A DNA stretch of 63,598 nucleotides, filler included, from Folioceros fuciformis (lineage: Eukaryota): NCBI GenBank assembly GCA_049999805.1. It is 11 parts of 11 records of this genome, joined end to end, with 100 filler letters (N's around TTAATTAATTAA, not from the genome) between each part and the next. Parts side by side here need not be neighbours in the genome. Positions count along the whole stretch, not along the records: positions 53,004 to 55,937 come from JBNGIO010005210.1; 10 more parts are not named here. One strand, written 5' to 3'. A program made the translations under genes and the position numbers. Below are positions 1,887 to 63,598 of this stretch, in pieces; the first letter of the stretch is position 1, and each line of letters starts with the position of its first letter. The notes below the pieces were generated by a model. It worked only from the letters and a program-made list of their open reading frames with translations. It was not told the origin of the DNA and made no database searches.

Positions 1887-2425
1887 GAGGAGTGTTCTCT
1901 AACTGCATTCCCACCCCTCGCATCTTCGCTATTGGAGATGAGGATATGAAGATCAGGGATAAAGAGGAGGATGACAAGGAAGAGGAGGTGAGGAGGAAGT
2001 CCAAGCAGCAACGGCGAGAGGCAAATCTTGCAGGGCCTGAGGTGGTCATGAAAGATGCTGAGGATCCCTCTATTTCTGCCAAGCCTAAGCGAAGGAGGAA
2101 GAAAGGATCAGTGCTACCACCAATCGCCAAAGACACACCTAGGTATTCCCTGGTAGACGACATCGTTTACAGGCCGGTGAAGATGACCTTCAAACAACTC
2201 TTTGGTACAGTTCCATCTGCACGAAAAGAAATGGCTGCTGCTTTAAGTACCCGAGAAGCAAAATCAAAAAGAAATAAAGCCAAGGCAGTGGGAGAGACAA
2301 AGGAAGAAGCTGCCGGGACTTCTGCAGTTCTAAAGATAGGAGATCGGAGTGCGAAAGGTGGGTGGCTGCAGAAACATGATCCTCCTTTTGTCAAGGCTTG
2401 GGTGAACGATTGAGAAGTCCACGAC

Positions 2426-2818
2426 GTGATTGTGGATGGCGGAACCTCAACAAACATTTTGAATGATAAGTGGCTTGCCCGACTCAATTTGCAGGACGCG
2501 AAGCTTAGGCCTTGTAGGAAGGTATTCAAGAATGCTTCTAATGTCCCGCTGCCTATGAAAGGAATCATAGACGGAATGAAAGTCATAGTGGAAGGAGTAA
2601 AGGTATCCATGGGGTTCGTTGTGGTTGAGCTCCCTGAACATGCTTATGGGATCACCTTCGGTCAGCCCTGGTTGGAGCTAGTGAAGGGAAGTCATGATTG
2701 GGACACGAGTATCTTGGAGATTGGACCAACACGGAAGCGAATCCAAGTTCCATCGTGGAAACCTGCAAAGGTGGAGATGAGCGACTCTACAACTACCAGT
2801 GAGTCAGGGAGTACATGA
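2426..2818 (+). pseudogene. Gypsy aspartic protease (DGG variant)
   Basis: IVDGGTSTNIL active site; YGITFGQPWL C-terminal motif. Confidence 0.85.
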
Positions 2819-2866
2819 AGTGAAGGGGAAGCAACGATATAGGAGGAGGATGACTCTGAGCTTGAC

Positions 2867-4340: not shown

Positions 4341-4379
4341 TGGGCTACCCCCAAGGTGCGGGTTACCATCAAGTGTTTC

Positions 4380-4664
4380 TGTAGGACCGCTAGAGGAGTT
4401 ACATAGTGAAGGAGGAGAGGCAAAGAGGAGGAGAAAGGAGAGGTCACACTCTCACAATAGAGTCTCAATAGCAAGGGAGCTCAAGGGGGTATTTATACCC
4501 TCTAGAAGAGCTCCCTAGGAAGCTTCACAAGAAGCGCACAGGAAGCTGTGCAAAAAGCTTCCTGCAGATTAGCTTAAGCTAATCTAAACTAATGGTACTT
4601 AACTGGACACTAATCTTAAACTAAACACATTAGTCTAAGCACATTGGGCTTTAATAACCCTACA
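4380..4664 (-). mobile_element. 3' LTR (285 bp) of a Tnt1/Tork-like copia element
   Basis: TGTAGG...CCTACA terminal inverted repeats; PPT (AAGGGGGAGG on minus) at 4666-4675; TATA box at 4490-4497; homologous to 28299-28607 and 8468-8628. Confidence 0.9.
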
Positions 4665-4706
4665 ACCTCCCCCTTAAAGGCCAATTTACCTTCATAGGAG
4701 AGCGGT

Positions 4707-6267
4707 CTACCTCATGCCCATGAGTGTCCGAGCTTGTGCAAATTGCTCCGAAGAGAGCCCCTTGGTAAGAACATCTTTAGAGTTCTGACTGGTGTGAACT
4801 TTGACAAGTTGCACCCTCTTGTCTTCCAACACCTCTCGAATAAAGTGATACTTCACTTCCACATATTTGGTCTTCGCATGAAACAGTGGATTCTTCGCCA
4901 ATTGGATAGCACTCTGGCTATCACAATGCAACACTAGCAGCTCAACCTTGATCCCCAAATCTCCCACTAAACGAGTAAGCCACATGGCTTCCTTGCACGC
5001 CTCAGTCGCTGCAACATACTCGGCCTCTGTGGTAGATAGCATTATGCACGATTGCAAACGAGATCGCCATGAGACTGCCCCTCCACTGCACATGAAGACA
5101 TAACCTGATGTGGACCTCCTTTTGTCCCTATCCCCTGCATAATCAGCATCCGTATATCCCACGACAGATGCATCTTCACTACCAAAACATAAGCACAAAG
5201 CTTTTGTACCATTCAAGTACCTCATAACTCCTTTCACTGCCTCCCAATGCTTCCTGCCAGGGTTTGACATAAACCTGCTAACCACTCCCACTGCAACAGC
5301 AATGTCAGGACGTATAGCAATCATTGCATACATCAAACTCCCTACAGCTGATGAGTATGGAACCTTCTCCATTTCAGCTTTGTCCTCCACAGAGCTTGGG
5401 CAATCCTTGCTTGAAAGTTTCACATATGGAGGCAACGGCGTACTCAATATCTTCCCCTTCTCCATATTGAAATGTTGAAGCACCTTGTTAATGTATTCAG
5501 TCTGAGACAAGTACAGCAAACGCTTCTGTCTATCTCAACGAATATGCATGCCAAGAATATGGCTTGCCTCTCCCAAGTCTGTCATGTCAAAGCGAGCATT
5601 CAACTTTGACTTCAACGCAGAAATCTCATCACTGTTAGTCCCGGCAATTAGCATATCATCCACATAGAGGACCAGAATGAGCAAGCTGCCATCCTTAGCT
5701 TGCTTCGTATAGAGGCAATGATCCTCATCGCTACGTTTGTAGCCTTGAGAAAGCATAAATGAGTGGAACTTGAAATACCACTCCCTGGGTGCCTGCTTCA
5801 AACCATAAAGGCTCTTCTTTAACTTGCACACCAAACTCTCTTTGTTCTTCTCAATGAAACCCTTTGGTTGCTGCATATATACCTCTTCCTGGAGATCACC
5901 ATGCAAAAATGCCGACTTCACATCCCTCTAGATAAGTTCCATGTCGTTCCTTGCAACCAGACCAAGAACACATCGCAAGGTGGTCATTTTGACAACCGGT
6001 GAGAAAATCTCATCAAAGTCAATACCTTGCTGTTGCTTAAAACCCTTAGCAACCAATCGTGCCTTGTACTTGGGTTTGCCATAGTAGGGTATGTCCTTCA
6101 TCTTATACACCCATTTGCATGGCAACGCCTTCTTGCCCCTAGGCAACCGAACCAACTCCCAAGTCTGGTTCTTGTGGAGCGAATCCATCTCCGACTGCAT
6201 CGCCTTCTCCCACTTGTCCTTGTCAGTCACTTACATGGCCTCTTGGTAACAAGAGGGCTCCCCACAA
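4707..6267 (-). pseudogene. pol: Ty1/copia RT-RNase H (Tnt1/Tork-like), with in-frame stops
   Basis: KARLVAKGF, DFDEIFSPVVK, LYGLKQAPR, YVDDML, GYTDADYAGD, STTEAEY, CDSQSAI, DVLTK. Confidence 0.95.
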
Positions 6268-6418: not shown

Positions 6419-8460
6419 ATGCCAGGTGAGGGGCAACCCGCTTCCGCGACTGGCGGATCACGGGAGGGTCTTGGGAATATAGACGTTCGATCTAGAGTAG
6501 GTGCTGAGAAGGGGAGAGCGTGGATTGACGAGGCTCTTAATTTGGTAGAGGCCATCATGGACCAAAAGTTCATGGTCACTTTTGGACAGCTCCTCAGGGA
6601 CACCCCACGATACCGGCAGCAAGTATGGCGGCCGCTGAACGCTACCCAGCCTAAGAAAAAGCAAAGCATGCCGAGAGTAAGATCGAGACCCCTTGCTATG
6701 AACCTGGTGGCTATGACGGATCAAGGACTAGCGGAGTTACAAATAGAAATTGCAGGTTGTGTGATCAAGAAAGTATCTTTGGACACCGGGACATGAGTGA
6801 ATATCATGACAGAAATCACGGCCCGGAAATTGGGACTGGAAATTGAGCACACGGCCAAGGTTCTGCGCCTTGCAGACATGTCAAAAATGGCGCCTGTAGG
6901 TGAGATAACCGGGGTGCTGACCCAACTTGGTACTATCCCGTATCTTATGGACTACGTGGTTATCAAACAGAAAGCTCCTAGATATGATGTGTTGATTGGC
7001 CGAACGTGGATGTATGGGGCCCGGTGTACCTTTAGGTGGGGACGGAAGGAAGTAGGATTCAAACCTTTGGACTGGGATCCTAAGGTCAAGGAAGGGCGGA
7101 TATGTCTGTCCTAGAGTAGGGATATGTATGCGAGAGAGACACCCACTGAGACTGATGGGTGCACCTCGGCAGAGGACACGGATGGGGAAGGGGATGAGGA
7201 GGAAAGGTTTCCCTTTGCCCGCATTTCTTAGTCAGACGAGGAGAAGGATTGCCAGAGGGACTTGCCCCATCTGATGAGCTGCTACGGAGTAACGGTCGAT
7301 TGTGCGCTCGTGGAACCCGTTACCGAGGTAGTGGAATCCACTACTGAGGTAGTTGAACCAAGGGAGTCAAAAGTGGTGGAACAGGAAACCGAGGCACCAG
7401 CGCTTGAGGAGCCGTAGGAGGACGTCACGCGTTCCACCTCGGAGGAACTATTCCATGAATGGGGGATGCGTGAAACTAAACCTCGACGACCAGAAGAAGG
7501 ATTCGGAGTTACCTCGGCACCTGTGGAGCAAGAATGGGTACAAGCGGATGAAATCAAGGACGTGGAGGTGCTGCCAAGAAAGGTTCTCAAGTTCTTGACA
7601 AAGTTGGACGAGGTGTTGGAACAAGGGATGAAGGATTTATTGGCAGAATTCATCAATGTTTTCGCCTTCGATGTCACGGATATGAAGGGCATACCCAAGG
7701 AGTGGGGGGAGCACAAGATTGAGTTAGTACCTGGGGCTATTCCAGTCAGAATTCCACACTATAAGCTGAACCCGAAGTATTCACTGAAGGTAAAGGAGCA
7801 GCTGGAACTGTACCTCAGGGCGAATATCATCTATCCCATTGTTACCTCGGAATGGGTAGCGCCGATTGTGGTGGTACCTAAGAAGCATTTGGGTAAGATA
7901 CGGGTATGTCAAGACTGGCGAAGGTTGAACAAGGTAACCCAAAAGGACCACTTCCCACCTCCGTTCATCGATAGCATTCTGGACCTAGTTGCAGGACGAA
8001 TGGTGTATTCCTTTTTAGATGGTTACTCTAGATATAACTAGCTTCATCTCCGAAAGAGCGACTGGCCTCTGACTGCGTTTACCACAAATTGGGGAACCTA
8101 CGCCTACAAGCGCAATGCCTTTGGACTGACTAAAGCGCCGGGATCTTTCTTGAGGGTGATAGTAAAAATTTAGGATTTCAAGGATTTCCTCCAAGACTTC
8201 ATGGAAGTATTTATGGACGACTTCTGTGTGTTTGGAGCAGAAAACGACCACTTGGGACACTTGCGCAAGTGTCTGGAGAGATGTAGGGAAGCTAACACCT
8301 GGGACACTTGCGCAACTGTCTGGAGAGATGCAGGGAAGCTAAACTGTGGCTACATTTGGAGAACTGCTATTTCGGCATGGCCGAAGGAATCTTGTTGGGG
8401 CATCGAATCTCAGCGAGGTGGATAGAGGTGGATCTTGACGAAGTAAAATGATAGCTGCCC
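6419..8460 (+). mobile_element. Degenerate Ty3/gypsy gag-end/protease/RT, related to the 930-4340 element
   Basis: VTFGQLL..P motif, SLDTGT protease site, YDVLIGRTW, WVAPIVVVPKK, LDGYSRYN, VFMDDF; many stops and a 47-bp duplication. Confidence 0.92.
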
Positions 8461-9992: not shown

Positions 9993-10589
9993 GTGGAGTC
10001 CACATGACGAACAGATTCCTTGGAAAATGGTAGTGTTTTTTTTTTTCGGGGTTTCTGATGGATTTCGTAAAGAAGTGGTTAGAAGATTAGGCTAGATTAG
10101 AGGTTAGATTAGTGGTTAGTGAATAGGGTCTAAGTAGGAAGTGTGGTAGGTAGGTCTAGGTTCCTCTGCTTAGGTGTTCAGATCTGTGTGGAACCCTAGA
10201 TCTGTGAGTAGGAGGCGAGTAGGGTTCCATGGAGTGGGCAGGCGGTGCACGAGGATGCGTAGCCGGAACACGGCGAACTGATGAGCAGCATGGCAGGAAT
10301 AGCGGTGCTGCTATGCCCGTATGGGTGGGAGGACCCGAGTTACGATCCTCTACAGCTGGCCATCAGGGAGTCGGCAGCCCCTCAACTGTGGCTTCTACAT
10401 CAACCTCAACCCGTGCCTACAGGAGGTCAGAAAGTCACATTGTGGAAGTGTACAGGGAGATTTGGAAATTTGTCATGGTAGATCTACTATGACCGGGGCT
10501 CAAGGATGCAGAGCACGGACTGCTAGATTCGTTTAAGGGCTCGATGAATAAAGTGGTGTACTACAGTGCAACGACGGGCATTGGCATAG

Positions 10590-12020
10590 GGCTCCAGATA
10601 GGCTGTGCGGCTGGCTGGATTCAAACCAGCAGCGCAAGCAGGCCAGGGCAGCGCTGAATCCAGGCGAGTTGATCGGGCTGCGCGGGTCAGGGTGGATCTA
10701 AGCAAGGTCGGAGCCAGGAGCAGGCCAAGAGCCGACTGGTTGGCTGGCTGCTAAGGAGCCTAGCCAACAGCCCAACCCAGCCTAGCAGCAGGCAGCCAGG
10801 TTGCCGCCTGACATCTGGTGGCTGGCGGTTGGGGGAAATCGGCTAGGCGGAGGTTGGCGGCTTGGGTGGGCGACCTGGCTGGTCACGCTTGGGTCAGCCA
10901 GGCCGGGCCATGGCAACCGGGCATATGGCTGAGCCGCGGTAGTCCCGCGGTCTACTGGTCGAGATAGAGCCAGACAGGAGCTAGCTGGCAGGTACGTCCG
11001 GCTTGCCAGCTGGATCTAGCCAGCCAAGAGCTAGTTAGACAGTGGCCGGCTGGCTGGGGGAAGTCCTGGCCGGAGGGCGTTCCAGATTGGTAGGGTGAAT
11101 CCAGCAAGCAGCCAAGCCGAGCAGGCTGGCTGCCTGGCTGGATCTGGAGGCCGGAGGCCAGCTAGCGGTCTCTGGCCAGTCGACTTGGGCAAGCAGCCGA
11201 CGGCCAAGGGAATCGGGCAAGCGGGCAGGTTGGCAGGGGGGGCCTGCTAGATCAGGCAGGCGGAACTAGGAAGCCAGGACGGCAGCAGGCTGGCTGGCAA
11301 GCGGCCAGCGCCGGATCGCTGTAACGGGCTGGTGGGATACTGGCGGCTGGCTCCAAGGGGCGGGATCCGATGGAGGCAGGTAGGCTGGTCGAGGCCGGGC
11401 AGAGCAAGCCAGCTTGTGGGTGGCCTAGTTGGTCGGTGGGTAGACCGACTATAGGGGGAATTCAGCCAGATAGCCAGGCCGATCTGGCAGGCTGGCAGGT
11501 GAATCCAAGCCCGGCCGGATCGCTAAGACTTGACGGGGCCAAGATGGCAGGATCTAGGCAACCATGGTAGGCTAGCCGGGATCGCGGATGGCAGGTTGGC
11601 TGGCTAGACGGCTCTGAGCAGCCTAGATCGGGATCTAAGTTGGCTGGCTGCAGTGGACGGACTGGATCCAAGTGGTTGGCTAGCCTAAGCGAATGGCAAG
11701 GCGGCTAGCGGCTGGCGGCTGGTGGATGGATAAGCGGCTAGCCGCGGCTGGAGCCAAGCAAGTGGCCTGGTTGATCGGCTAGCAGGGGTAGCTACAGAGG
11801 ACGTGCATTTGGACAGGCGATCGGCTAGCTGGCCGGATCTGGCCATACATCTAGCTGGCAGGCTGGCCGAATTGGGGCCGGATCGCCAAGCATCTGGCAA
11901 GTGGGCCAACAAAGCAGGCAGGCCAGAGGTGGCATCGGATCGCCAGGCAGCCAGTGGGCTAGCCGGAAGCAGGTTGGCAGGGGGCTGGCTAGCGGAGCAG
12001 AAGGAGAAGGGCACCTTGCT
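10590..12020. repeat. GC-rich, G-skewed cryptic-simple sequence built from GGCTGGC/GGCAGG/GCTAGC/GGATC words
   Basis: Dense reshuffled short motifs; no credible ORF. Confidence 0.7.
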
Positions 12021-12358
12021 TGACACGTCCATGCTGCCCTCGCGCCTTTACATTGCACAAGACAACTCTCATGTTGATGGGGACAGGCAGGTTGTAGGTC
12101 ACTATCTCGAGGTGGCTGGGGCTAGAGATTCCCATGTTGCTCTGCCTGTGGAATCATATAGCAAGAAGAACCGCAGGGATTTGACGTCGGTGCATATTGC
12201 TCTTGAGTGGGGTGGTTGTGGCCAACTCTTTTTCCAGGTGTGGAGGCAAAACCCCGGGCACTGATTGCCGACGGGTTCCACCTTTAGTGGCCACACTTAT
12301 CCCACTGTCGTTGAGACATTGGGTTTCGTTCCCACGAAGGAGCGATGGGGTTCCTTGC

Positions 12359-26699: not shown

Positions 26700-28298
26700 G
26701 CATTCCACATGCATGAACCCTCGTGCAACCAATCTAGCTTTGAATATAGCCACCTCACCCTTGGCATTTAACTTAAGTTTGAAAATCCACTTGCAAGAGA
26801 TGGCCTTGCGCCCTGGTGGTAGATTTGTTAGGATCCAGGTCTTATTTTTCACAACAGACTGGTACTCATCCTCAACAGCAGCTTTTCATTGTTCAGATTC
26901 AGGCCCATTGAAGGCCTGCTGCAGGCTAGTGGGCTCATCCGGCAAAGTGGTCTTAAAGGCGAGGTTGGTCCTAAAGTACACGAGGCAAGATTGGTATCTA
27001 GGCTTTGCCCATTCGAAAGGAGGTGGACGATAGCGAGTTGATCGTCTAGGTTCAAAGGTAGGTGCAGGTGGGTCCTCTACTAGTTCATTGACAAACAGGT
27101 CCAGGTCATCAGCTAGGTCTGCAGCTTCAGCCCCCTCATGATCTTGGACAGGTAAGTCATCAACCAAAAAATCGTCCTCAGCTCCATCATCTTGTTCTGC
27201 AGCAACTCTGTCGTTTTCGTCATCTTGTGCATCGTTATCTGACTGGTGGTCGGCCTGTAGGTCCACTGTAGGTTCCAGGTCATGCTCCTGTGCTTCAACA
27301 ACAACAGCTGTAGGGATGATAGGTGGAATATCAACCAGTTCCATGTCATCCAAGGGATATTCAGCAGGATGAGCTGATGTGGTGTCATAGTCATTTGCTG
27401 TCATGGGGTAGAACACCTTGTGTTGTACTAGAAACTGGTGAATTAGGCTCCACGAAAGTCACACTTCGGGCAAGCAGCATACAGTCTTGTGGTGGGTTGT
27501 ATAGCTTATAGGCTTTCACATGCTCACTATAACCTACAAAAATCAGTCCTTGAGCACGAGGTTCCAGCCTCCTTCGTTTTTCAACGGGGATATATGCAAA
27601 TGCACATGAGCCAAATACCCTTAGATGTAACAAGCTAGGTCTCATGCTCCAGAACACCTCATATGGTCTCTTTTGTGGGACAGAGCTCGTGAGAACCCTG
27701 TTCAAGATGTATGTGGCTGCTACAATTGCCTCGGCCCAATACCCTTATGGTAAGCCTGCCCAAATGAGCATGCTTCTGGTCATGCCGAGCAACGTCTGAT
27801 TTTTGCTCTCATATACACCATTATGTTGCGGTGTGTAGAGAACTGTTAGCTGGCGAAGGATGCCATGTTCCTGGAGCAGCTCATCAAAAGATGAGTTTAC
27901 AAACTCTGATCCATTATCCATCCTTAGTAATTTCAGAAGCATGCCAGATTGCCTTTGAGCTGTAAAGAGCCAGTCTCTAAAAATGCTGAAGGTATCACTT
28001 GTAAGCTGCATTGGGAACGTCCATGTGTATCTGCTGAAGTCGTCTATTAGGGTGAAGAAATAATGTGATCCTCCTAAAGACGGCTCTTGTATCTTTCTAG
28101 ATATATCAGCATGAACTAATTCCAGCACTTGTATAGCTCTATGTGCAGGGGCAAAAGGAAATCGGGATTCCTTTTGCTTTGCCAAGGTGCAAGACTCACA
28201 AACAGCTAAGTCTTTGAAGCACTTCGGCAAGCGTTCTCTTTGGCATTCAGTAACAGGCATGTCAATTAGCTTGGCTCTATTGATGTAGCCTAACCTAA
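26700..28298 (-). pseudogene. pol: Ty1/copia GAG-pre-integrase, integrase and RT start, cut at both ends
   Basis: RLGYIN, CESC, VHADIS, LRMDNGSEF, QHNGVYESKN, KARLVARGF (break ~26700). Confidence 0.92.
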
Positions 28299-28607
28299 TG
28301 TAGGGTTATTAAAGCCCAATGTGCTTAGACTAATGCGTTTAAACTAATGCATTTAGTCTAAGATTAGTGTTTAATTAAGTGTCATTATATTAGATTATCT
28401 TAAGCTAATCTGTAGGAAGCTTCCTATGTAGCTTCCTGTGCGCTTCTTGTGAAGCTTCCTAGGGAGCTCTTCTAGAGGGTATAAATACCCCTTTGAGCTC
28501 CCTTGCTATTGAGAGACTCTATTGTGAGAGTGTGACCTCTCTTTTCTCCTCTCCTCCTTGCCTCCTCCTCTCCTCCTTCACCATGTAGCTCCTGGAGCGA
28601 TCTTTCA
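28299..28607 (+). mobile_element. 5' LTR (309 bp) of a Tnt1/Tork-like copia element nested in another copia
   Basis: TG...CA termini; TATAAATA at 28480-28487; followed by PBS; homologous to 4380-4664. Confidence 0.93.
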
Positions 28608-28609
28608 AC

Positions 28610-28621
28610 TGGTATCAGAGC
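28610..28621 (+). promoter_or_regulatory. Primer binding site for initiator tRNA-Met
   Basis: TGGTATCAGAGC, 2 nt after the LTR CA end. Confidence 0.95.
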
Positions 28622-29167
28622 GCAAGTTGTGAAGCTGAAATTGTGAAGCGAGATGCTCATGTCTGCAGGTGCCACGGACAAAGGCCCATGATGAAGGGCA
28701 TCTAGGAGGAGCACGAGGCTCCGAGAGTGAGGGAGCTGGGACCTCGGGGTGCCGCGAGCGCGGGGCACCGGGAGGTTGATGCCGCACCGCGAGGGGGTTC
28801 TGCCCCGGGGCACCATCCACACCAAGTACCACAGGAAGAGGCGCAGGGTGCCTGGTGAGCGGGGCACCTGAGGCGCCAGGCCTCGCGGGGCGGATGAAAG
28901 GCCCCCCTGCCCCGAGTGCCATCATAACCTCGGCCGCTGTGGTCGCAGGCCGCGGCCAGGGTGCCGGGGCCCCGAGCGCTGGTCCAGCCCCGACTAGCCC
29001 GCGGGGAGCGGGCAGACCCCAGCAGTAGGGGGCACCTGACCTGGCCGCTCCGCTGCGCAGGGCGCCGGGCCCCCTGCCGAGGCACCAACCCTTGGCCGCC
29101 CCGATCGGGGGCGCTAGGGGAGCCAGCCTCGGCCAGGGGCGCTAGGGCGCCAGACCGCCAGGGCAGC

Positions 29168-29370
29168 GGCTAGGGCTCTAGGCCGCCGCTGGCTGGGGCT
29201 AGGGCGAAGGCTAGAGCGTCGGCTAGGGCACTGGCTAGGGCGATGGCTAGGGCATCGTCTAGGGCGCCAGCTAGGGTGCAGCCCCTGGCTAGGATGACGG
29301 CTAGGGCGCAGCCGCCGACTACGGCGATGGCTAGGGCGACGGCTAGGGCGCAGCTGCCGGCTAGGTCGCG
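29168..29370. repeat. Degenerate ~12-bp tandem repeat (GGCTAGGGCGNN) inside a ~1.1-kb GC-rich 5' leader
   Basis: More than ten CTAGG-core units visible; the flanking leader is rich in GGCACC/GGCGCC words. Confidence 0.8.
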
Positions 29371-29828
29371 CCATCGAGGCGCCACCTGGGTGCCAACGAA
29401 GCGCTAACGGGGCGCCACCTGCGCGCTAACGAGGCACCACTCGAGAGCTAGTGGGGTGCCTCCCAGGCACCAACGAGGCGCCACTTGGGCGTTAGTGGGG
29501 TGCCACCTGCGCACCACCCGGGCACTAGCGAGGTGCCACTTGGGAGCTAGCGAGGCACGAGCGGGGCACCACTAAGGAGCCAGCAAGGCGTCACCCGGGC
29601 TGCAGCCGTTCGCCAGCAAGGCGCCAGCAGGGCGAGGATCCGGCCAAGTGCCGAGCGCGCGAGATGGGCGCCGAACTGCCCTCGACCGTGGAAGTCAGGA
29701 TCTTGATCGGACGACGGGAGACATTCCAATTGTGAACGACCAAAGACTAAATTGTGGACAGCTGTTTCGTTGTGAGGGTAACTTTTAGAATCTATATTAC
29801 ATTCCGACTGTTTTTCCGATTTTAAAAC

Positions 29829-30160
29829 ATGGCGTCCTCGGAAAACGTCATGTTCAATATTGAAAAGTTAGATGGTACTAACTTCCCGTTCTGGAAAGAA
29901 CAAGTGTATAATGTTCTAGTACAGAAGAAGCAGATCAAGCCCATCAAGTTGCTAAGAGTGAAACCCGTTAGCATGACTCAAGATGAGTGGCAGGATCTAG
30001 ATGAGCTTGCTAGGTCTACCATCATGCAAACATTGTCCAAGTCGGTCTACTTCAACATGAAAGACAAGGCCACAAGTTTCGAGCTGCGGCAGAAGTTGTG
30101 TGACCTATATGAAAAGCAAAGTGCGGCTTCTCAGGTGTATTAGTTGAAACAGCTAGTGGA
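29829..30160 (+). pseudogene. gag: Copia gag N-terminus (Tnt1/Tork-like), cut by contig end
   Basis: FNIEKLDGTNFPFWK...LDELARSTIMQTLS...LCDLYEK; TAG at 30141. Confidence 0.9.
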
Positions 30161-53003: not shown

Positions 53004-53549
53004 ATATCTAAATATGATAAGTTAAGCATATGGCAGCTTAACCCGTAACAACAAGCTTGAGCATCAGGTGGACTTGATGTTCACCAAGCTAACCATCATG
53101 TTTCCTACAGGTTCGCTGAAAAAGATCCAGGAACTATCGAGATTTTCTTTCAGGCCTAGCAAGACATTGCATGCATCTTACCTCAGATTGAAGGTTCTAG
53201 TGGAAGACACGGGTGTCAAGACAATGAGGGAGGCCACTGAGATCTTCATTGCAGCATTGCCTGCCATGTAGAGAAGGAAGGTGATGGACTCACTACATGG
53301 AGCGATGGGAGAGAAGTATCAGTTGATAGATGCTTACCAAATTGCTGAGAAGGTGCCCAAAGGTGATGTAGTAAGCCAGGCTTACTTGGAGGATCACGAA
53401 GTTGTGCAGAGCCCTTCGGCTTGCTGGACAAGGCCATGGAGGTGCCTGTAGTAAGTCTTATGGATCTGGGTGTGAAGGGCAACAACTTCAAGAACATCAT
53501 GTGAGAATGGCTGAGGAAGGAGCTTGAATCCGCAGGATTTGTTCCTAGC

Positions 53550-54053
53550 ATGGCCAGCTTGTGTGAAGATCATCTGATGCCAGAGGAGCGAGGTGAAGGA
53601 GGTGTTGCCATGATTGATAACACTGGGAGGCACATAACTTTTGATGGTTATGCCCCAATAAATGTACCAATAGATACTGGAGCAGATCCAATACTGCCGG
53701 GAGCACGAGTGCAGGAAGCACTGAAGCTTTACGGGCACAAGCTCGTTCCAAGTGATGTGAAGATCACCACCTCTGCAGACACCAAGGAACAGGTGCTGGG
53801 AATGACGAGGAAGCCCGTGAAGATTGAGTTGAAGCCTGGCACGAAGGATGCCAGCATTGTTGAAGTGAGATGTTTGGTAACCAATGCAAAGACATATGAT
53901 GTTTTGCTGGGGTCCAATGGAACTCACCGTCCTGCTACAGGAGTTGATCCCTTGCACGTAGAAGCCTTCTACAGACCATTCTGGTGGAGAGGAGATTTCA
54001 CGCATGTTGGACGAATTCCCCTGAGGATGAACAGGAGTGGTGGGAAGAGCTGA
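53550..54053 (+). pseudogene. Gypsy aspartic protease
   Basis: VPIDTGADP active site; YDVLLG. Confidence 0.85.
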
Positions 54054-54371
54054 ACGAGAATGATAGGCAGCGCCATGATTGCTCACAGTGCTCAGAGTGA
54101 GCATCGACATGAGATGTGGGAGGAAACGCAGGAGTTCTCCTCTCTAGAGATGCCGAAGCCAAGAGAGCAGAAGGGTGTGCTCAAGGTTGTGTGTTCAAAG
54201 TATTTGGATGAAGCTAGGGTTCGAGAAAACCAGCAAAGGAAGGAGAATTGATCGTGGAATCTCACAGGCACATGTCTTGAGAGGTCGATCCAGATGTGAG
54301 GCTTGCAAAGACAGGAGATCGACGCATCAACGATGCTCTAGTACGATGGAAGGTGGGCGCTTAAGGTCAGG

Positions 54372-55292
54372 TTGGAGCTTTGCTTAGGAATCAGCAGTGG
54401 CCTGGAAGCGGGGTTGGAGTGTGGCGTCAAGGTATGCAAATATACCTACGTTGAGAAGGACGAGAAGGCTTGGGCTGTGGCTACGAGCCGAATTCTCAGG
54501 TTCTGTAATCAGTACCCAACGCTGTTGAACGAGGAAGCAGTTCGAGGCTACCAAAGCAGGCTACCCACATGCATGAACCTAGTGGGGAAGCGGCAGCTAG
54601 AAGCCTTGTCGAGTTCAGTGGATATGTTAATCGCGGGATAGGAATGCAAGACATTTTCGACAGCAGGCAAAGGCAAAGGTGAAGGTGTTTCGTTGGCTGC
54701 TGAGCTCGCACGAATTGTGCGAGAAGTCCAAATTGCGAATCCACGATGTTGGTACATTTTGGAGAATGTGTGTGCAGCCATGGACAGATGTCCAACTGTC
54801 AGGTCTTTGTATGAGGAGATTCGGTCATGGTTCAGCAATGAGTTGATCATGGACACAGTGCATTGTGGCTCATATGCACATAGGCTTTGCAGTTAATGGA
54901 CAAATGTGGCTAGATTGGACGTGCTCAGGCGGCACAGGAATTGGACGACTCCGAAGTAGAAGGTCGTGGATGACATCCTTGAGTTGTAGAGGTGCTCACA
55001 ACAGGTGAAGCGGATGGACAAGCTGCCATTTTATCCTGTGAATCGAGTAGGAGAAGCTAGAAGGGCATGGCTAACTCTAGTGAGCACACCGCAATCTTAT
55101 GCCTTCAGGCTAGGAGGGGATGGTGTGATTCTGGAGTTGAAGGGGAATGAGCTTGGAGAGCTCAATGGTGAAGAACGCGAGCAAGCAATGGGGTTTGCCA
55201 AGAAGGGCACTCAGACCATGGGCATTATAGAATCTGCAAGATGTAGGATGCTTGGGCAGGCATTTGACCTGTACAGTCTGAGATGGCTGTTG
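54372..55292 (+). pseudogene. DNMT3-like C5 cytosine DNA methyltransferase domain inside the retrotransposon polyprotein
   Basis: Motif I LELCLGISSG, II YVEKD, IV DMLIAG*ECKTFSTAG, VI YILENV, VIII SYAHRLCS*WTN, TL dipeptide, IX EEREQAMGF, X RCRMLGQAFD; canonical order, one frame. Confidence 0.88.
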
Positions 55293-55464
55293 AGCACAAG
55301 CTTGGCATTCCAGCTTGCAGAAGCTAAAGGGAAGCAAAACCCTCGCCTGCAATTGCTAGAGGATGAAGAGGTTTCGGAGGCAGAGGAAGATGAACTGCCA
55401 CGGGAGAGATTCAGCATGGTTGCTGTGGACACTGAACTGTCCACCAACAGTATGACGAAAGAGG

Positions 55465-55937
55465 TTCATGTGTGGCACATCACAGAAGATGTAAGCCCGA
55501 AAGATAAACAGAAGATCATTGACTTGCTCGAGAAGAACATGGGTTCTTTTGCATTTTGTTGGAAGGAGTTGGGCAGGTATGAGAAGATCAAGTTCAAAGT
55601 GGTGAGTGACTACTTATGAGGAGCCCATCTTTAGAAGAAGGAATTGCTTAAGTCCAGCAAAGTGGGAGATTGTTGACAAACGCTGTCAAGATCTGTTTGA
55701 AGCAGGGTTGATAAGAAAGTCAAGTTCTCATGATGCTGATACGACGGTCCTGTCGCTCAAAAAGGATGAAAACGGTGAGTGGAAGGATAGGAGGATGTGT
55801 GGTGACTACCGACCTCTAAACGAGGTGACTCCCATGGAGCGGTACCCCATGCTTACTCTAGATGAGATTTTCGTTGCCATAGGTAAGGCAAAATTCTTTA
55901 CCAGCTTGGATTTTTGCTCAGGCTTCAACCAAATTGT
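55465..55937 (+). pseudogene. pol: Gypsy reverse transcriptase N-terminal part (frameshift ~55600; cut by contig end)
   Basis: KQKIIDLLEKNMGSFAF, PIFRRR..LS, LFEAGLIRKSSS, RMCGDYRPLN, FTSLDFCSGFNQI. Confidence 0.9.
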
Positions 55938-56037: not shown

Positions 56038-57769
56038 AACCAAAGGTTGTGAAGATTCTCTTCGAATGGTCTTAACCAAAGGTTTTTTTCCACGATTTTA
56101 GGTACACTTTACTTCTTTGTATGAAGTACTTACATTCAAGAATATGACAAAGATGCTAATTTACATAGTGTAGCTACTTGCATTCACTCCTCGTGTTTCC
56201 TTGTTGTAGATGGCCTTACGAAATTATCTCTTTACTAAGCCCAACCTTGGAATGAAGGGTCATCAATACAAGTTTGGTTACAATCTTATTTCAATGGCTT
56301 GTGACAACATCGATATTTTGATAGAATTGAGTGGTGGAGACATGATTGGTGATTATGTCGACATACTCATCAGATAAAACAAAGTCCAAGTTTGGCTAAT
56401 GCATTTGTGATAGATCACATCCTTGACCAGTTGAGAGCTTTTTGTGCTTTATCGAAAGGTTGCCCGAGAGTTACATTGGTGCAAGGTATTATCAATCCCT
56501 ATTGTGTACACAAGTTGATACCTTGCAATGATAGACATGGGCAAGCATGGCTTGAAAAGGATTATAGAAAGCGTCTTTTAGATGAAAAGCAAGCTTTGAA
56601 GTGTGGGAAAGGATACTTTACTATGAGTAACATATCGGATTGTGTATGTTATTGGCCTGAAATTTGTGGACATGGGCCACATTTGACATCCACTGCCATA
56701 GTAGAACTTTTGGACACAGAAGACTTGAGCAAGATAGTGTTGGAGAATGATAAGTTTCACAAGGATCAACGTCATTCTATATCGAAAATGGTGGATGATC
56801 TTACACATGGCAAGCAAAAAGGTCTAGGTGGAGGTGATGGTTTGTTTATGACATCAAAAGAAACAATTACGAGCTCAAAGTCAAAAGATCCTTCTGCAAG
56901 TGTGACTTCATCAAGTTCTTCTTTTGTAAGGTGTCGTTCTGATCTTTTGGGTGGAACAAGATTGGAAGGCATAGAATATGTGATGAAGAACAAGATTGGA
57001 AGGCATAGAATATGTGATGAAGAACCTGCACAACGATGTGAAGAATCTGCACAACGATGGCAAGAATATCAAGGACAACCACGGGGAACTTATGAGAAAA
57101 TTAGATTGCAATAAAGAGGAGATGTTGAGGGCCATCAAGTTCAGTGACGAGAAGCTAACAAATTTCAAAAGGGATACTTTGGGTTTATTGGAGTCGCTTA
57201 TGAGTGACATCATTGGGTATCATACTTCCTCCACGTTACCTTGTCGTCCTTACATTTCTCATGATAATGTATCTATGGTAGAAATGCTGAAAGCTTTGGT
57301 TCAAGTTGGTGTGGCGATTCGTCTATGCCTCATGTGTGAAGAGAGGGGCGGGAATCACGTTGTGCAAGGACAACCTGGCTATGCTATGGTTGTAGAGGAG
57401 AAAGATTGTAAGTGGATTCGCAAGCTTTTGGTGAATGGTACCAAGATGTTCTTTTTTCTAGTCAAAGTAGGGCTTCATGTGGCTGCTGGGATAGACATAC
57501 CAAATGATATGAAAGGACTTGCATTAGGGACAGAATCCATCTTGGCCAATAGTGAATTGGTGCTAATGCAAGCCACAAATAGGGATGATGGGGAAGTGGC
57601 CATGGATGGAGGGTTGAAAGAGCTTCTTGAGTCCCTTCGATCTCAATGCCAAATGTGGAAGTTATTTGGGTTGACACAAGTAAGATACTTGGAAGACAAG
57701 AAAACAGCATGGCTTTGTGATGAATGCATAAAAAAGTGCAAGGATAAGGAGCTTGTTGTAGATTGTTGA
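56038..57769 (+). pseudogene. TORNADO1-like (plant Roco/COR) C-terminal region; one intron 56102-56209; disabled
   Basis: CEDSLRMVLTKGFFPRF, DYVDILIR, VTLVQGIINPYCV, RLCLMCEERGGNHVVQGQPG, LVKVGLHVAAG, FGLTQVRYLEDKKTAWLC parallel recalled TRN1 motifs (TPGFFPRLQ, HMLCE...HVVEDQ.G, FGLWRVRYRDDG.IAWIC). TAG at 56099, stop/frameshift ~56375, 34-bp duplication at 56954-57021. Confidence 0.8.
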
Positions 57770-59080
57770 TTTTCGAAGATTAGGAGTGTGAAATGTAATA
57801 GGTTTGCTTTACCATGCCGCTTTGTACGTAGCATTGCAATGCATTGCTATTAATCATATATTGATTGTAATGAAGGATTTGGATTCAAAAGCATGGTTGT
57901 ATTTCACTTTATGAATGATGATGAGAAACTGTGTAATCGAATGTTAATTACCATAACATTTTATGAATTGAATATTATGAAAGAGGGTTAAGACGAAAGC
58001 CTAGAATCCATATTTGTAGGTTGTGGGAACATTTGTTCACCTCGACATGCGGTGCTAAGGGTGCAGATATGCGGGCAAGCTCTTTAATTGACGTTTTCCC
58101 TCATGATGCCAACAGCCCCAATTGAACATAACGTAGTGAAAGAAGGATTTTCGTCAAATAAGGTACAGTGGCAAGACAATAGGTCATAGCTCTCAGAGGG
58201 TAACGTGTGTCTTGTGCTCAAGATTCCTTGTGAGCTGCGCTCGTTTAGTCAATTGCCTCCCTCATGTGCTTAGCTCCCGATAGTTGGTCTCATGAAGCAA
58301 TTTGCATGTACAACAACACTTTAAAGGTGGCTATCTAGATTGACTATTCCTCCACCTCTTTGGGTTTATACTCATACGGAGATGCAAACCCAGCATGGCC
58401 TCGGGATGCAGGGGAACTTTTCACATCTCCAAACATACACATTCAGCTTTTAGTAGGCTCTCTTGAGATTGACAAATGGTTGAAGGAGACTAGAGCAAAA
58501 AGCCATTGATGATGACCATCTCGAAACTCCAACGGTAAAATGCTTTGTGTAGCAAAACCTTTGGATCCTTGTTGTGAGACCTTGGGGCACATATTCACGA
58601 TTCTACTGAACGGAACGTCGCTATCATTGCTTCCCTAGAAAGACCTTAAGTATGGCTTGGCAAGATGTCTAGCCACGTGATACTCATTCAACAGTCAATG
58701 GTATTAATAGAATCAAGAGAGCACGGTCCCGTTGTGTCATTCGTGGAGCCCGTTGCGATAGAATCACCACTAGTTGATGGCCTACGAGAGTTAGTGAGTA
58801 CCAAGGGACATGATCTAGTCCTCGCAGTTCCGTAGGCATTTCGGATCAGCAGTTATCCTTCTCGGCTGGACAAGGACGACAAAGGCCTGACGTTTGGTGC
58901 CGTGCAGCGCTCAAGGCATTCGGTGTCCTCATCTATTGCTGTGGAAGGAACTCGGTAAGCAAAGCGAACCATACCCGAACCTCGTTTCTTTGAAAACAGA
59001 GCAGTGGACTCGGCGTGACAATCCCGTCATGAATCTTAGCATCCCACATCCACCAAAGCATAGAGATAGGACTGGGAAGG

Positions 59081-59307
59081 CCAAGGTGTCCCAGTCTCTA
59101 CTTCTGTGTCACCCCTTAACGGAGAGGAAACTAGATTGCACCTTCCCAGTCCAAGGTGTCCCAATCCCTACTTCTGTGTCACCCCTACACGGAGACCAAA
59201 CTAGCTTTGCACCTTCCCAGTCCAAGGTGTCCCATTCTCTACTTTTGTGTGTCCCATCCTCTACTTTTGTGTGTCACCTCTTAACGGAAAGGAATCTAGC
59301 GTGCACC
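59081..59307. repeat. ~70-bp tandem repeat x3 (CCAAGGTGTCCCA...CTACTTCTGTGTCACC...ACGGA...CTAG...GCACC)
   Basis: Units start at 59081, 59151 and 59222. Confidence 0.85.
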
Positions 59308-59544
59308 ATTCTGGAATCGAAGAAAGAGGGAACAAGGAAAACAGCAACCATCCAAGCGGGCAGATCATTGTTTGTCATTCGGTAGACTTGGGTCAGGCAA
59401 AGGCAGTTATTGCGGATCGCATGGGCTCGGGAGTAAGAGAGGAGACAGGTGGACCTCGAGTTGATCTGGTTGGTCTGACGAGGATACCATCACCTCAATT
59501 TGGGTGCTGCAGTCACTTGGGATTCATTCATTGGTCTCTTACCA

Positions 59545-59644: not shown

Positions 59645-62600
59645 TGTTCAAGAGGAGTTGAAACAGGTTTGCAATTTTGCATCTGGAAACGTGCTAGGAT
59701 CTGCCTGATATATTTAGCCTGGTGCATAAAAATACTCCTTCTTTCTCTGTCTCTTTGAATTTGCATCCCTAGGCAGAATGTTAATGCACCTGAGTCTGTC
59801 ATCTTGAATGCAGACTTGAGCTGCTCCTTCAGCTCTCCAATCATATTCAGGCTATTGGACATAATAAGTATGTCATCAACATATATTGCGAGTGCCAAGA
59901 AATTCTTGCCCTCGCCCTTCTTTACATAAACGTTACCGTCTGCATGAATAGGCAGGTAGTTATGAGAAACTAGGAAGCTATGTATACGTGCAAACCATGC
60001 ACGAGGACTTTGCTTAAGTCCATATAAGGTCCTTTTGAGCTTGCATACAGTCTGCTGTTTAGTGTCAGAAGGTAATAATCCAGCAGGTGGCTCCATATAG
60101 ATCTCTTCATTCAGATGTCCGTACAGAAACGCTGTGGTAACATCGAGCTGTTCAAGCTCATAATTGTGGACAGCTGACAGGGCCATAAATAATCTGAGAG
60201 TGCTCATCTTTACTACAGGACTGAAGGTGTCCGTATAGTCGACTCCTGCAACTTGTGAGTAGCCCTTTGCCACTACTCTTCCTTTATAACGTTCTATGCT
60301 ACCATCAGCTTTCAATTTAACCTTAAACACCCATTTACTGCCAATGAGCTTCCTTCCAGGTGGCAGCTGAGTGAGTTCCCAAGTTTCATTCTCCTTCAAT
60401 GAATTCAGCTCGGAGGCAATTGCCTTCCTCCAATGTTCAGCATCAGGACAGGCCAATGCCTCCTCATAGGTTTGTGGCTCGAAGTGCTCAATTGCAGCAG
60501 CTAAACAGTAAGTCAGATTTGACTTTGAATGCTTTGGGTCCTTGCCATGCCGCCAATCATGAGCTTTGTATAGGTCAATTTTCCCAGCAGTTGACCTAAC
60601 AGGTTTTTGACTTGGCTGTACAGGTACTGAGACAGCCTTCTTCTTGCGTTGCACAACTCCAGATGTCTGTGTATGCTGATAATGTGAGGGTGTAGAAAAC
60701 AAGTCTCCAAGAGACACTACTCCCTCTATGTCAAAATCTCCAAATACAATAGGTGCCGTTTCAGCACTACTAGTGGGTCTATTTGGAGGTTGACTGATTG
60801 GCGTAGCTGGAACTTGCTGCCCTTGTACACCAACTTGAGGATTAGCTGGTGGTACAGTAACTTGAGGTACAGCAGCTATTGGATTTGAGGGCACTGATTC
60901 TTGCCCTTCATCATCTGATGTTTCAGGTGTATCCTGGGAGGCAGCTCCCACTGAATCAAGTGATTCCACTCCTTCAACAAAAATGACATCCCGAGAATGT
61001 GTCACCCTCCTGGTACGCTTGTCAATAACTTTGTATCCTTTGATACCATCTGAAAAACCCAGAAAGATGCAGGATGTTGACTTAGGATCAAATTTCTGCC
61101 TAAGATCTTTGTGAACATGCACATAAACAGGTGATCCGAAGACCCTCATGTGAGAAACATCAGGCTTTTCTCCAGTCCAAAGCTCGTAGGGGGTCTTGTC
61201 TTGGACAGCTGCATGCTCTATCCGATTTTGTATGAATGTGGCCTATGCTACTGCTTCTGCCCAGTAGCACTTCGGAAGATTAGCATACGTTAGCATGCTA
61301 GAAGCTGCTGTCTCCAGGGATTTGTTCTTATTCTCGGAGACACCATTTTGTTGTGGAGTACGTGCATTTGTCAGCTGCCTCGATATGCCATTTGCAGAGG
61401 TAAACGCCTGAAACTCAGCAGATACATACTCTCCTCCATTGTCAGAACGCAATGCCTTGAGTCTGTGCTCAGTTTTGTTTTCTGCCCATGCCTTGTACTC
61501 CATGAAGCAGGACAAAGTTTCAGACTTGCGTTTGAGGAGATAGATCACAGTGAACCTCGAATAGTCATCGATGAATGACAAAAAATAGGTCTTTCCTCCT
61601 ATTGACACAGGTAGTGGTCCACATACATCGCTGTGCACTAACCCAAGCAATTTTGTAGCTCTCTCAGCTGGTTCTGACGGAAAGGGTGCTCTGTGGTGCT
61701 TCCCAACAACGCATGCATTGCATATACCAAAGTCAGATAAGGTATCTAACTTTAGTCCCTTCACCAGCTGATTTTTATACATGCGTACTAGCTTTTGGAA
61801 GTTCAGATGGCCAAGTCTCAAATGCCATAGGTATGTTAAAGATGGCTTTGCCATGTGTGCAGGGTGCACAGGTGCATTGTCTTGAACATGCTTGATGTTC
61901 AAATGATATAAATCATCAGCTTTGAGTCCTCCAGTAGCCATGAGCTTCCCTTCCGGAGTCTCCACTATGCACTTGCCTCCGCCGAAGAAGATGTAGCAGC
62001 CTGACTGGTCTATCTTTCGTATAGATACCAGGTTTTTAGCTAATCCTGGTACATAGAGCACCTCTGGGATTTCTAGGTGCTGATCAGGCTCGAGGTCAAG
62101 CTGGATTGTTCCTTGACCTTCGATTTTGTGCTTAGTGTTGTCCCCCAGGCAAACAAACCTCTCAGCATTTATTGGTTCAAGATTTGTGAAGTAGGCATGA
62201 TTTGGCGTCATGTGCTGAGACGCTCCTGAATCTATGTACCACACCTGGTCAACCTGGGATGCGTAACAGGTAACCACCAATGCTGAGATACTGGTTGCAT
62301 GATGCGGTACATTTTCAGCCTCTTCTACTGTGGCTGCAAAAGCCTTAGTATATTTCTTCATGGTAACTGCCAAATTACCACTAGTGTGGCTGCCTCCTGA
62401 CCGATTAGCCAGTCTTTTTCTACAGACTTCCCAGGTGTGATTGGGAATTCCGCAATAGCCGCATGGCGGCTTGCTCTTTCCAGCATTAAAGGGCTGTGGT
62501 CTGAATGAGATACCACGTCCTCGGCCTCTTCCTCTGACAAAAGGCCTGCCTTTGCCTTTGCCTCGTCCAGGTTTATTAATGAACAAGGCCTTATCTCCTG

Positions 62601-63219
62601 CAGCTGTTGAGGACGATGCCATAGTTCGGCGATTTTCCTCAGTAAGCATAGTTGAGATGACACGGTTTACCGTGATCTGTGCTACATTCTGCAGAGATTG
62701 GACTACATTGGTCCAGCTTTCTGGCAGCTGTGAAAGGAGAATGACAGCCATTATTTCTTCATCGAGTTTCAAGCCGAGTGCCAGGAGTTCTGTTTGCCAA
62801 CTTCTCCAGGTGAGGACAAACTCAGCAACTCTGTCAGTTTCTGACATCTTCTGGCATACAAAAGACTTGAGCGTGTGAGTCTTTAGCATCAAGTCTGAAG
62901 CATCATATACTTCAAGTAATTGTTGCCAGAGAGCTGCTGCTGATGTAAAAGAGCCCATGAGTGTGGCTATATGAGAGCTCTTGACACTCATAGTTAATGA
63001 ACTCCTTGCTTGTTGATTTGCAGTCTGCCATGCTGCAATCTCATCCGATGGTGCAGTGTTTGGTGGTTCAAGTTTCACAGCAGCTGCACCTACGTATTCC
63101 CACAAATTTCTCGACTTCAGCAATTCTTCCATACGGAACTTCCACAGGTTAAAATTTTCCCCATCAAACTTATCTTCCTTCGCCAAGGCAAGAGGGGTTT
63201 GTGGCTGTTGCCCAGCCAT
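59645..63219 (-). mobile_element. Near-intact Ty1/copia gag-pol (single in-frame TAG at 61243-61245; 3' end cut by contig)
   Basis: KFDGENFNLWK, CGYCGIPNHTWEVC, WYIDSGASQHM, WHLRLGH..CNAC, HSDVCGP/SDNGGEY/NGVSE, YVDDIL; both ORFs lie in the same frame. Confidence 0.96.
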
Positions 63220-63598
63220 GACTCTCAGTCGAGAGAATGAAAAGTAGCCTTGCAGGAGGAAGGTGAATTTCGTTGACACTTTACCTCTAAAGACATTTGA
63301 ATACTTTCTTGTTGGGCAAAACAGAACTCAGAATGCAGTTTGTGTACTACATGACAAGTGAAGGTTTCTATGTAATGGACACAGGGTATGAATGGTTGTT
63401 CCTTAAGCAGTTCACTCAACGAATTGAAGACTAATGTGTGGACACTATCTGGTGTCGCAGGCAGATTTATGACAAAGGTTGACCTGGAAGACATGTCTGC
63501 TATTGGACCAGGTCAGAAATATCTATCTTGCTCCAGTCATACCCATCATTGGCTTCGAAACCCTGAACCACATTTGTTGCCATTAGTTCTAAGATGAT

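Follow-up and report, generated by a model that had tools for sequence, protein, structure and literature searches.

A decayed fragment, very probably of a streptophyte Gypsy-DNMT3 retrotransposon, with a DNMT3-type methyltransferase domain between protease and reverse transcriptase

The closest described system to the element reported here is KnitGypsy-Dnmt3 of Klebsormidium nitens, in which an unrearranged Dnmt3 domain lies inside the polyprotein of a long terminal repeat (LTR) gypsy retrotransposon (de Mendoza et al. 2018, PMC5890265). The sections of that paper on this element place the domain in the Pol open reading frame (ORF), describe the repeats as DIRS-like and report a ratio of nonsynonymous to synonymous substitution rates (Ka/Ks) below 0.2. 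Later works, in their passages on it, call the streptophyte case "Gypsy-DNMT3" (PMC12344493; bioRxiv 10.64898/2026.05.21.726589). In this study we analysed a stretch of 63,598 bases from the Folioceros fuciformis assembly GCA_049999805.1, which we call the window. One of its contigs, at 53004-55937, is very probably a decayed and internally deleted fragment of a streptophyte Gypsy-DNMT3 LTR retrotransposon, with a DNMT3-type methyltransferase (MTase) built in between the protease (PR) and the reverse transcriptase (RT).

Besides Gypsy-DNMT3, there are also other retrotransposons with DNA methyltransferases. According to the parts of the 2018 paper that treat it, SymbioDIRS-Dnmt3 of Symbiodinium carries a DNMT3-type enzyme with de novo CG methylation in yeast (PMC5890265). 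SymbioDIRS-Dnmt3 and SymbioLINE-Dnmt resemble the window element as retrotransposon-borne C5-cytosine MTases, but they belong to other element classes, with a tyrosine recombinase or of the LINE type and without PR or integrase (INT), and the authors regard them as independent acquisitions (PMC5890265). EpiLTRs and DAM-LTRs are gypsy-like and carry DNA methyltransferases, as the window element does, but theirs include adenine MTases, and their C5-MTase is reported to be sister to DNMT4; the part of the preprint that describes them sets them apart from the streptophyte Gypsy-DNMT3 (bioRxiv 10.64898/2026.05.21.726589).

A methyltransferase domain between protease and reverse transcriptase

The window consists of 11 contigs placed end to end and joined by N44-TTAATTAATTAA-N44 spacers, seen as ten pairs of 44-N runs, each pair flanking the 12 letters TTAATTAATTAA. 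The stretch with the DNMT domain is exactly one entire contig (JBNGIO010005210.1) of 2,934 bp and is internal element sequence. The neighbouring copia and gypsy remnants belong to separate contigs and so have no physical linkage to it; with this make-up of the window it is unsafe to link features across a spacer. The parts of the DNMT contig are the following:

53026-53451, plus strand: gag-like remnant (capsid region), one stop, in a frame different from that of PR; weak phmmer match
53406-53421, no strand: break relative to an abundant family variant, from contigs of sequencing runs
53550-54029, plus strand: retropepsin-type aspartic protease, with D-T-G at 53673-53681; tblastn with relatives
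54054-54341, plus strand: PR-DNMT linker, holding 3 of the 8 stops; an alternative frame is open at 54148-54387
54366-55331, plus strand: DNMT3-type C5-cytosine methyltransferase domain (supported by profile and predicted fold), motifs I-X unrearranged, 4 in-frame stops
55332-55611, plus strand: DNMT-RT linker and conserved pre-RT stretch, still in the DNMT frame; by-eye match to related loci
55602-55612, plus strand: change from the DNMT frame to the RT frame, through decay
55612-55935, plus strand: N-terminus of a Ty3/gypsy-type RT, ~108 aa, ended by the contig end; tblastn

The read-through frame at 53505-55619 comprises 705 codons, with eight internal stops (54051, 54249, 54297, 54339, 54639, 54894, 54957 and 54987) and a terminal stop at 55617. 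Across the same interval the other two forward frames have 43 and 41 stops and the reverse frames 17, 17 and 28. The initial annotation, which had joined several ORF pieces into one frame interrupted by eight stops, was borne out in this respect. It had also quoted C5-MTase motifs, all of which are present in the translation and sit on conserved columns of a 20-sequence family alignment with the window as its first sequence.

With X at the stops, the read-through translation matches the Pfam DNA methylase family (PF00145), as the annotation had expected, with an E-value of 1.4e-5 and 25.1 bits against a cut-off of 22; the match spans only motifs IV-VI (residues 360-424 of the read-through). 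The profile of the 20-sequence alignment was compared with solved structures, where DNMT3A, 3B and 3C came top (E 1e-20 to 1e-17, human DNMT3A at 1e-20), followed by NtDRM (1e-15), AtDRM2 (4e-11), M.HhaI (1e-9) and DNMT2 (2e-3), and DNMT1 was not among the 56 profile matches. The single read-through sequence gave only a chance-level match to solved structures. Since three aligned blocks of the profile are colinear with DNMT3A, the motifs are not rearranged, in contrast to those of DRM proteins.

An AlphaFold model of the domain from the family alignment reached a mean predicted local distance difference test score (pLDDT) of 85.8 and a predicted template modelling score (pTM) of 0.87; since intact relatives make up the alignment and the breaks were entered as X, it mostly mirrors the family. 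All Foldseek matches shown down to rank 49 were DNMT3A, B or C (E 3e-13, template modelling score 0.63-0.81), and a search of a protein atlas with a natural Marchantia domain led to "C5 methylase" clusters. Compared among solved structures, profile and predicted fold support a DNMT3-type domain, as had been annotated. The domain is ~320 aa long, with the catalytic Cys codon at 54645-54647 and the E-N-V of motif VI at 54762-54770. It shares the catalytic fold and motif style with the host enzymes DNMT3A/3B of animals, plant DNMT3 and DRM, but in the fold alignment it is only 17-20% identical to DNMT3A/B, and it sits inside a polyprotein; the PWWP and ADD domains of animal DNMT3 had no Pfam match in the window or its relatives.

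The two flanking enzymes, also named in the initial annotation, are recognised through relatives (numbered P for proteins and L for metagenome loci) and not through Pfam. For the protease, residues 750-886 of P0007 match 53601-53996 with an E-value of 2.5e-19 and P0003 matches with 3.6e-18 (tblastn), whereas the Pfam family Asp_protease_2 stays under its cut-off (E 0.03-0.17). The RT start matches residues 532-639 of Closterium P0018 (E 4e-26, 46% identity), residues 1368-1472 of P0033 (45%) and the loci L001 and L002 (E 3e-26), giving 44-46% identity to gypsy-type relatives; Pfam had no match for the short piece at 55612-55935. PR precedes RT, and the RT frame differs from that shared by PR and DNMT, so the single frame claimed for the three does not extend into RT. 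In outline, the contig thus agrees with what had been proposed, a Ty3/gypsy-type element whose protease and RT flank a C5-MTase.

The remaining parts are less well matched. In a phmmer comparison with ~258 proteins, the gag-like remnant weakly resembles Closterium P0024 (E 8e-4) at residues 134-226, upstream of the CCHC knuckle of that protein at 296-309; Pfam had no match over 53026-53451. For the PR-DNMT linker no homologue was found with either frame; the abundant variant differs from it by several short insertions, at 54289 and 54366-54370. In the pre-RT stretch, ...SFAFCWKELG... of the window was matched by eye to ...CFAFS..ELG... of the loci, and a homologue search with the linker 55305-55619 found none.

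The catalytic residues that are conserved in relatives are not conserved in the window copy. In motif IV a stop stands two residues before the catalytic Cys, where most relatives have Trp, and the Gln is replaced; in motif VIII the second Arg is replaced, and motif I is degenerate in the 20-sequence alignment. Point stops were the only damage mentioned initially, but besides the eight stops there are also the frame change at 55602-55612, the break at 53406/53421 and the missing CCHC knuckle, which was found in none of the forward frames of the contig. Around the frame change the contig is colinear with relatives, in which one and the same frame covers DNMT and RT, and sister contigs with a depth of ~19 differ there by a length that is not a multiple of three. 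A native frameshift site at ~55610 was considered and rejected, as relatives have DNMT and RT in a single frame and the change falls inside the colinear stretch.

A further view of this copy comes from contigs of the sequencing runs X1 and X2, which contain the contig at shares of 0.63 and 0.60 and belong to one sample, probably that from which the window derives. Contigs identical to the window have a word depth of 11-18, and contigs 88-90% alike (53051-55507) a depth of 410-612, so a related variant greatly exceeds the window copy in abundance, depth not being a copy number. Past 55507 the abundant variant departs from the window and its depth drops. The high-depth X1/X2 contigs match the window up to 53406 and again from 53421, and beyond these points they are unlike it for at least 265 and 373 letters. 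In relatives ~250-370 aa including the knuckle lie between the gag part and PR, and the break is probably an internal deletion or a replaced segment by which the nucleocapsid/CCHC part was removed. At least one of the eight stops, at 54051, is private to the window copy. Among transitions between the window and X1 contigs, the window has A/T at 165 places and G/C at 90, and the CpG observed/expected ratio of the contig is 0.49, which looks like the decay of a methylated repeat. The copy is dead, as initially annotated, and cannot make the enzyme. Contigs of a third run of the same sample, X3, differ from the window nearly only by C>T (86 of ~137 changed places); X3 looks like a bisulfite or enzymatic-conversion library.

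Family membership and host lineage

A word-indexed search with the 321-residue domain returned 17 longer proteins, from Marchantia, from metagenomes (1,330-1,450 aa) and one from Closterium. The best named match is Mp_4g09160 of Marchantia polymorpha (P0002; 38% identity, E 1.7e-49). An exhaustive phmmer search of 1.84 billion representatives gave 623 clusters at E<=1e-3, of which 307 reach E<=1e-10 and 27 reach E<=1e-30; identity exceeds 44% in none of them, and no near-full-length match exceeds 40%. A scan of metagenome contigs added 80 loci, the best being 36-38% identical to the window DNMT.

Among 257 DNMT-bearing proteins, 91 have the order RT-DNMT-INT and 25 the order PR-DNMT. The full order CCHC-PR-DNMT-RT-RNase H (RH)-integrase is found in P0033, P0343 (metagenome) and Closterium P0333, and Closterium P0345 and P0024 are of the CCHC-PR-DNMT(-RT-RH-INT) kind, too. 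Marchantia P0323 has DNMT, RT and RH in this order. PR, DNMT and RT of the window are colinear with P0033 and Closterium P0018 by tblastn. The MTase had been taken for an integral module of the polyprotein, and this view gained support, the same order occurring in proteins of Klebsormidium, Closterium and Marchantia and in metagenome loci.

The K. nitens protein GAQ93235.1 (P0072) aligns with the window domain end to end (31% identity over 321 columns, E 1e-35), and its Pfam order is CCHC, PR, DNMT. The novelty that had been suggested for the element is not supported: the Klebsormidium Gypsy-DNMT3 kind was known before, and judged by similarity and domain order the window copy is a further dead member of it and not a new kind. 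It differs from KnitGypsy-Dnmt3 in being only ~31% identical to the K. nitens protein, in its host, and in being dead and truncated.

The Marchantia proteins (Mp_4g09160, Mp_8g17980, MARPO_0091s0058) and those of Closterium spp. share the domain order of the window, but they form tight groups of their own with the window outside both, and they are annotated merely as hypothetical proteins. The Marchantia copies are young, given terminal branches of 0.008-0.08 in the DNMT tree. No description of the Marchantia proteins was found in the literature, six Marchantia gene identifiers returning no paper, though supplements might describe them. When the literature was searched for gypsy elements with a DNMT in land plants, liverworts included, it gave only the 2018 paper of de Mendoza et al. 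and the preprint of 2026; supplementary figures of PMC5890265 and PMC12344493 may already show a wider distribution. The initial annotation knew of no well-described land-plant family. For the literature searched this still stands, but Marchantia copies were already present in public protein sets and, by their sequence relationships, place the family in a land plant. One further Marchantia protein, P0017 (Mp_7g09570, 612 aa), is annotated as PHD-type, carries a PHD finger at its C-terminus and aligns to 26% of the DNMT query with 40% identity. It may derive from a DNMT-bearing element, either as a fragment or as a domesticated part.

Given the relatives of the element, the host of the contig likely belongs to the green lineage. 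Whether it is a land plant is less certain. The contig could stem from a green alga, streptophyte or other, that was itself sequenced or that contaminated the sample, and its land-plant novelty would then fall away. We take this possibility seriously, although we do not favour it. The named relatives include the algae Klebsormidium and Closterium. In a careful tree search with PR, DNMT and RT start (22 rows), Klebsormidium branches first, followed by a three-way fork of the window, a Closterium and metagenome group and a Marchantia and metagenome group, so the window stands outside both the Closterium and the Marchantia group. Host gene, rRNA and tRNA markers were not found in the 11 contigs, and the copia polyprotein of the last contig has no close named relative, the best named matches being Pinus taeda (37% over 48% of the query) and Riccia (28%). 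On the other side, the remaining contigs are dense in copia and gypsy remnants and CpG-depleted (0.36-0.65), which fits a large methylated plant genome and would also be possible for large algal genomes. Furthermore, X4, a run from another study under the same species label, contains the abundant variant, which makes a contaminant private to one sample less likely. No RNA run was listed among those with the contig; the RNA label of X4 is a guess and says nothing on expression. The branching of the named groups in the three-segment tree resembles the streptophyte species tree and hints at long vertical descent.

Intact relatives and the role of the enzyme

In all 11 of the inspected loci a single in-frame stop lies between DNMT and RT at the same aligned place. 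For the seven loci printed as DNA, the stop codon is TAG in five and TAA in two, and the next codon is CAG or CAA in all seven. The sites are:

L001, 5083-5091
L002, 2081
L003, 3243
L005, 2686
L006, 12131
L007, 4245
L018, 3631

L001 and L002 have the stop context TAG CAG TTA, which resembles the leaky-stop context UAG-CAR-YYA of plant viruses. In the locus L001, an open frame of 1,359 codons with gag, PR and DNMT is followed by the stop and then by a second open stretch, 1,047 codons long, that encodes RT, RNase H, integrase and a PHD finger. Five ENA proteins (P0011-P0014 and P0320) end at the conserved stop, because their terminal residues are those of the first ORF of L001, and the Marchantia proteins P0002, P0321 and P0004 with the P0003-P0008 group end within the same post-DNMT stretch. 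The stop is thus a candidate programmed read-through site, which would place the DNMT in the Gag-PR protein. The arrangement is not universal, since P0033 consists of one uninterrupted ORF and the corresponding place in the window lacks a stop, and it may not apply to the window's own lineage.

Direct LTR pairs were found in two of the five loci scanned, L006 (300 nt, 94%, spacing 8747) and L062 (235 nt, 91%, spacing 8758), and none in L001 (within its contig), L024 and L015. A repeat in L052 was rejected as an LTR pair, being a local tandem pair with a spacing of 419. In contrast to KnitGypsy-Dnmt3 as presented in the sections on it, with the domain in Pol and DIRS-like repeats, the DNMT of the readable relatives belongs to the Gag-PR ORF, upstream of the conserved stop, and the LTR pairs at two loci are plain direct repeats. 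A PHD finger follows the integrase at the C-terminus in both domain orders, in L001 (5086-8226, residues 990-1034) as well as in P0022, P0026, P0032 and P0322. It occupies the place where chromoviruses have a chromodomain, and it may be a histone-tail reader for targeting.

Across the 20-row alignment and the relatives, the invariant columns include the Cys of motif IV, the E-N of motif VI and an Arg of motif VIII. The ratio of nonsynonymous to synonymous divergence (dN/dS) of the DNMT was calculated for 13 pairs, of which five gave no estimate as dS was saturated or zero. L001 and L002 have a dN/dS of 0.13 at a dS of 0.26, comparable to the Ka/Ks below 0.2 given for KnitGypsy-Dnmt3 in that paper's sections on it, a sign of purifying selection in both cases. 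Low values were also found for L001-L006 (0.18, with dS saturated at 2.8), L034-L036 (0.32, with almost no changes), and L044-L045 (0.03) and L041-L043 (0.14), family loci whose domain order was not checked. Three pairs within the degenerate group L003/L005/L006/L013 have 0.66-0.94, as expected for dead copies. Most of the PR-DNMT-RT copies among L003-L021, which come from one metagenome contig set, have 1-10 stops in the DNMT; they look like decaying copies in a eukaryotic genome within those samples and not like free-living microbes. With catalytic residues conserved and dN/dS low in the intact relatives, the domain is under purifying selection there and the enzyme is most likely active in the family.

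What the enzyme would do can only be proposed. In the bryophyte-like subgroup the DNMT would be the C-terminal part of a Gag-PR-DNMT protein ending at the conserved stop, and RT, RNase H, integrase and PHD finger would then probably be produced by read-through. Synthesised together with Gag, the enzyme would enter the particle or the pre-integration complex, where it could methylate the new complementary DNA (cDNA) or the fresh insertion of the element, so that the insertion bears a host-like CG mark. Methylation of retrotranscribed DNA by element-borne DNMTs is also the hypothesis put forward in the discussion of such elements by de Mendoza et al. 2018 (PMC5890265). Tentatively, we regard such self-methylation of new cDNA or of a fresh insertion as the likeliest role.

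A different role of the domain in the intact relatives, in which it does not act on element DNA, seems unlikely to us. It could methylate RNA, similar to DNMT2, or bind DNA or chromatin for targeting together with the PHD finger. The Klebsormidium domain showed no DNA methylation in yeast, and no de novo activity was detected, a result its authors call inconclusive in the section that reports it (PMC5890265). The relatives' domain would also meet RNA in the particle as part of the Gag-PR protein. However, the catalytic Cys, the E-N-V and the arginines of motif VIII are invariant or nearly so, which a pure binding module would not need, and the nearest solved relatives are the DNA enzymes DNMT3A/B, with DNMT2 far lower (2e-3 against 1e-20). 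The related SymbioDIRS-Dnmt3 domains, moreover, methylate CG in yeast DNA, as that same section describes (PMC5890265).

To our knowledge, transposons that carry the silencing enzyme of their own hosts are rare, and we know of no established benefit to them. It is possible, if doubtful, that Gypsy-DNMT3 is an old family of the green lineage with two fixed domain orders, carried into land plants (the young Marchantia copies and possibly the abundant family of the window host), and that in its bryophyte-like branch the MTase forms the tail of Gag-PR before a leaky stop. If true, production and packaging at the Gag level would suggest that methylation, in the particle or on nascent cDNA, is among the conserved steps of the life cycle. 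The capture looks old and long kept, because the Klebsormidium element has relatives in both Closterium and the liverwort Marchantia, and chlorophytes carry a sister form. Marchantia is a tractable model for studying young copies, and the conserved stop between DNMT and RT offers a testable idea on the dose and destination of the enzyme. The dead window copy adds little by itself.

Two domain orders and the remaining contigs

The second domain order, RT-RH-DNMT-INT-PHD, is found in chlorophyte-type elements of Haematococcus lacustris (P0088/P0291), Chromochloris zofingiensis (P0106) and Cymbomonas tetramitiformis (P0322) and in ~100 metagenome proteins. They have a homologous DNMT3-type domain (profile E down to 1e-162) and gypsy-type RT, RNase H and integrase, but their DNMT lies between RNase H and integrase, while that of the window lies between PR and RT. 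The DNMT tree was built from the window and 56 reference rows, namely 29 PR-DNMT-type rows (all covering at least 270 of 346 profile positions) and 27 of 105 RT-DNMT-INT-type rows (the named ones and 24 random). One branch with a Shimodaira-Hasegawa-like approximate likelihood ratio test (SH-aLRT) value of 99 splits the two orders. The free tree puts the window on the PR-DNMT-RT side with a terminal branch of 1.67 (1.4-1.7 across trees), as for a pseudogene, and in the three-segment tree the PR-DNMT-RT side including the window is separated from the chlorophyte-type rows at 97/93.

Several observations weigh against the contig being a streptophyte Gypsy-DNMT3 fragment with a built-in enzyme. 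Forcing the window together with the chlorophyte-type rows improved the log-likelihood of the DNMT tree by 7.5 units over the quick free search, which had missed this solution, and the approximately unbiased (AU) test did not reject this grouping, with p 0.71 for the DNMT and 0.22 for the three segments. No LTR, RNase H or integrase was seen in the DNMT contig, which ends within RT, and GAQ93235.1 is only presumably one of the published KnitGypsy-Dnmt3 copies. To these are added the yeast result and the missing conserved stop in the window and P0033. We still consider it very unlikely that the element belongs to the chlorophyte-type lineage. The chlorophyte-type P0022 is among the best single matches (150 bits), but the RT start scores 107 and 88 bits against PR-DNMT-RT elements and 79 bits against P0022, and the window's order of PR, DNMT and RT start occurs, among the 56 reference rows, only on the other side of the 99-supported split. 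The trees give no firm placement, and the assignment of the window to the streptophyte Gypsy-DNMT3 family stands on domain order and pairwise scores.

That a fragment of a host DNMT3 lies between PR and RT only here, through a one-off capture or a chimeric assembly, had been named initially as what could undo the reading and can hardly be the explanation. The contig is short and no single listed Logan contig spans all of it, but the passage from PR into DNMT (53421-54416) is bridged by run contigs, as is 54533-55507 in X4. The same order is found in independent proteins and loci of at least three named genera and in many metagenome contigs, and among element-borne domains the DNMT has far closer matches (E 1e-49) than among solved host DNMT3 structures.

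The contigs of the window are placed as follows:

1-6267, contig 1
6368-12358, contig 2
12459-16137, contig 3
16238-22875, contig 4
22976-30160, contig 5
30261-34477, contig 6
34578-37464, contig 7
37565-52903, contig 8
53004-55937, contig 9, with the DNMT
56038-59544, contig 10
59645-63598, contig 11

The other ten contigs had no DNMT match in tblastn with the relatives' proteins. Rfam gave no match over the entire window, and ten of their ORFs that do not look like transposable elements matched no Pfam family and no host gene marker. Two stretches are GC-rich, 10001-12000 (0.60) and 28001-30000 (0.58), compared with ~0.46 elsewhere, and hold low-complexity open frames rich in Gly, Ala, Pro and Arg; the open frame 11734-12261 in one of them had no Pfam match. 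Gypsy-type RT/RNase H remnants without DNMT are found on other contigs at 3026-4336 and 7622-8311, both on the plus strand. Finally, a nearly intact Ty1/copia polyprotein is located at 59647-63327 on the minus strand, in back-to-back open frames of 694 and 532 aa, and its top database match is an unnamed protein with 62% identity.

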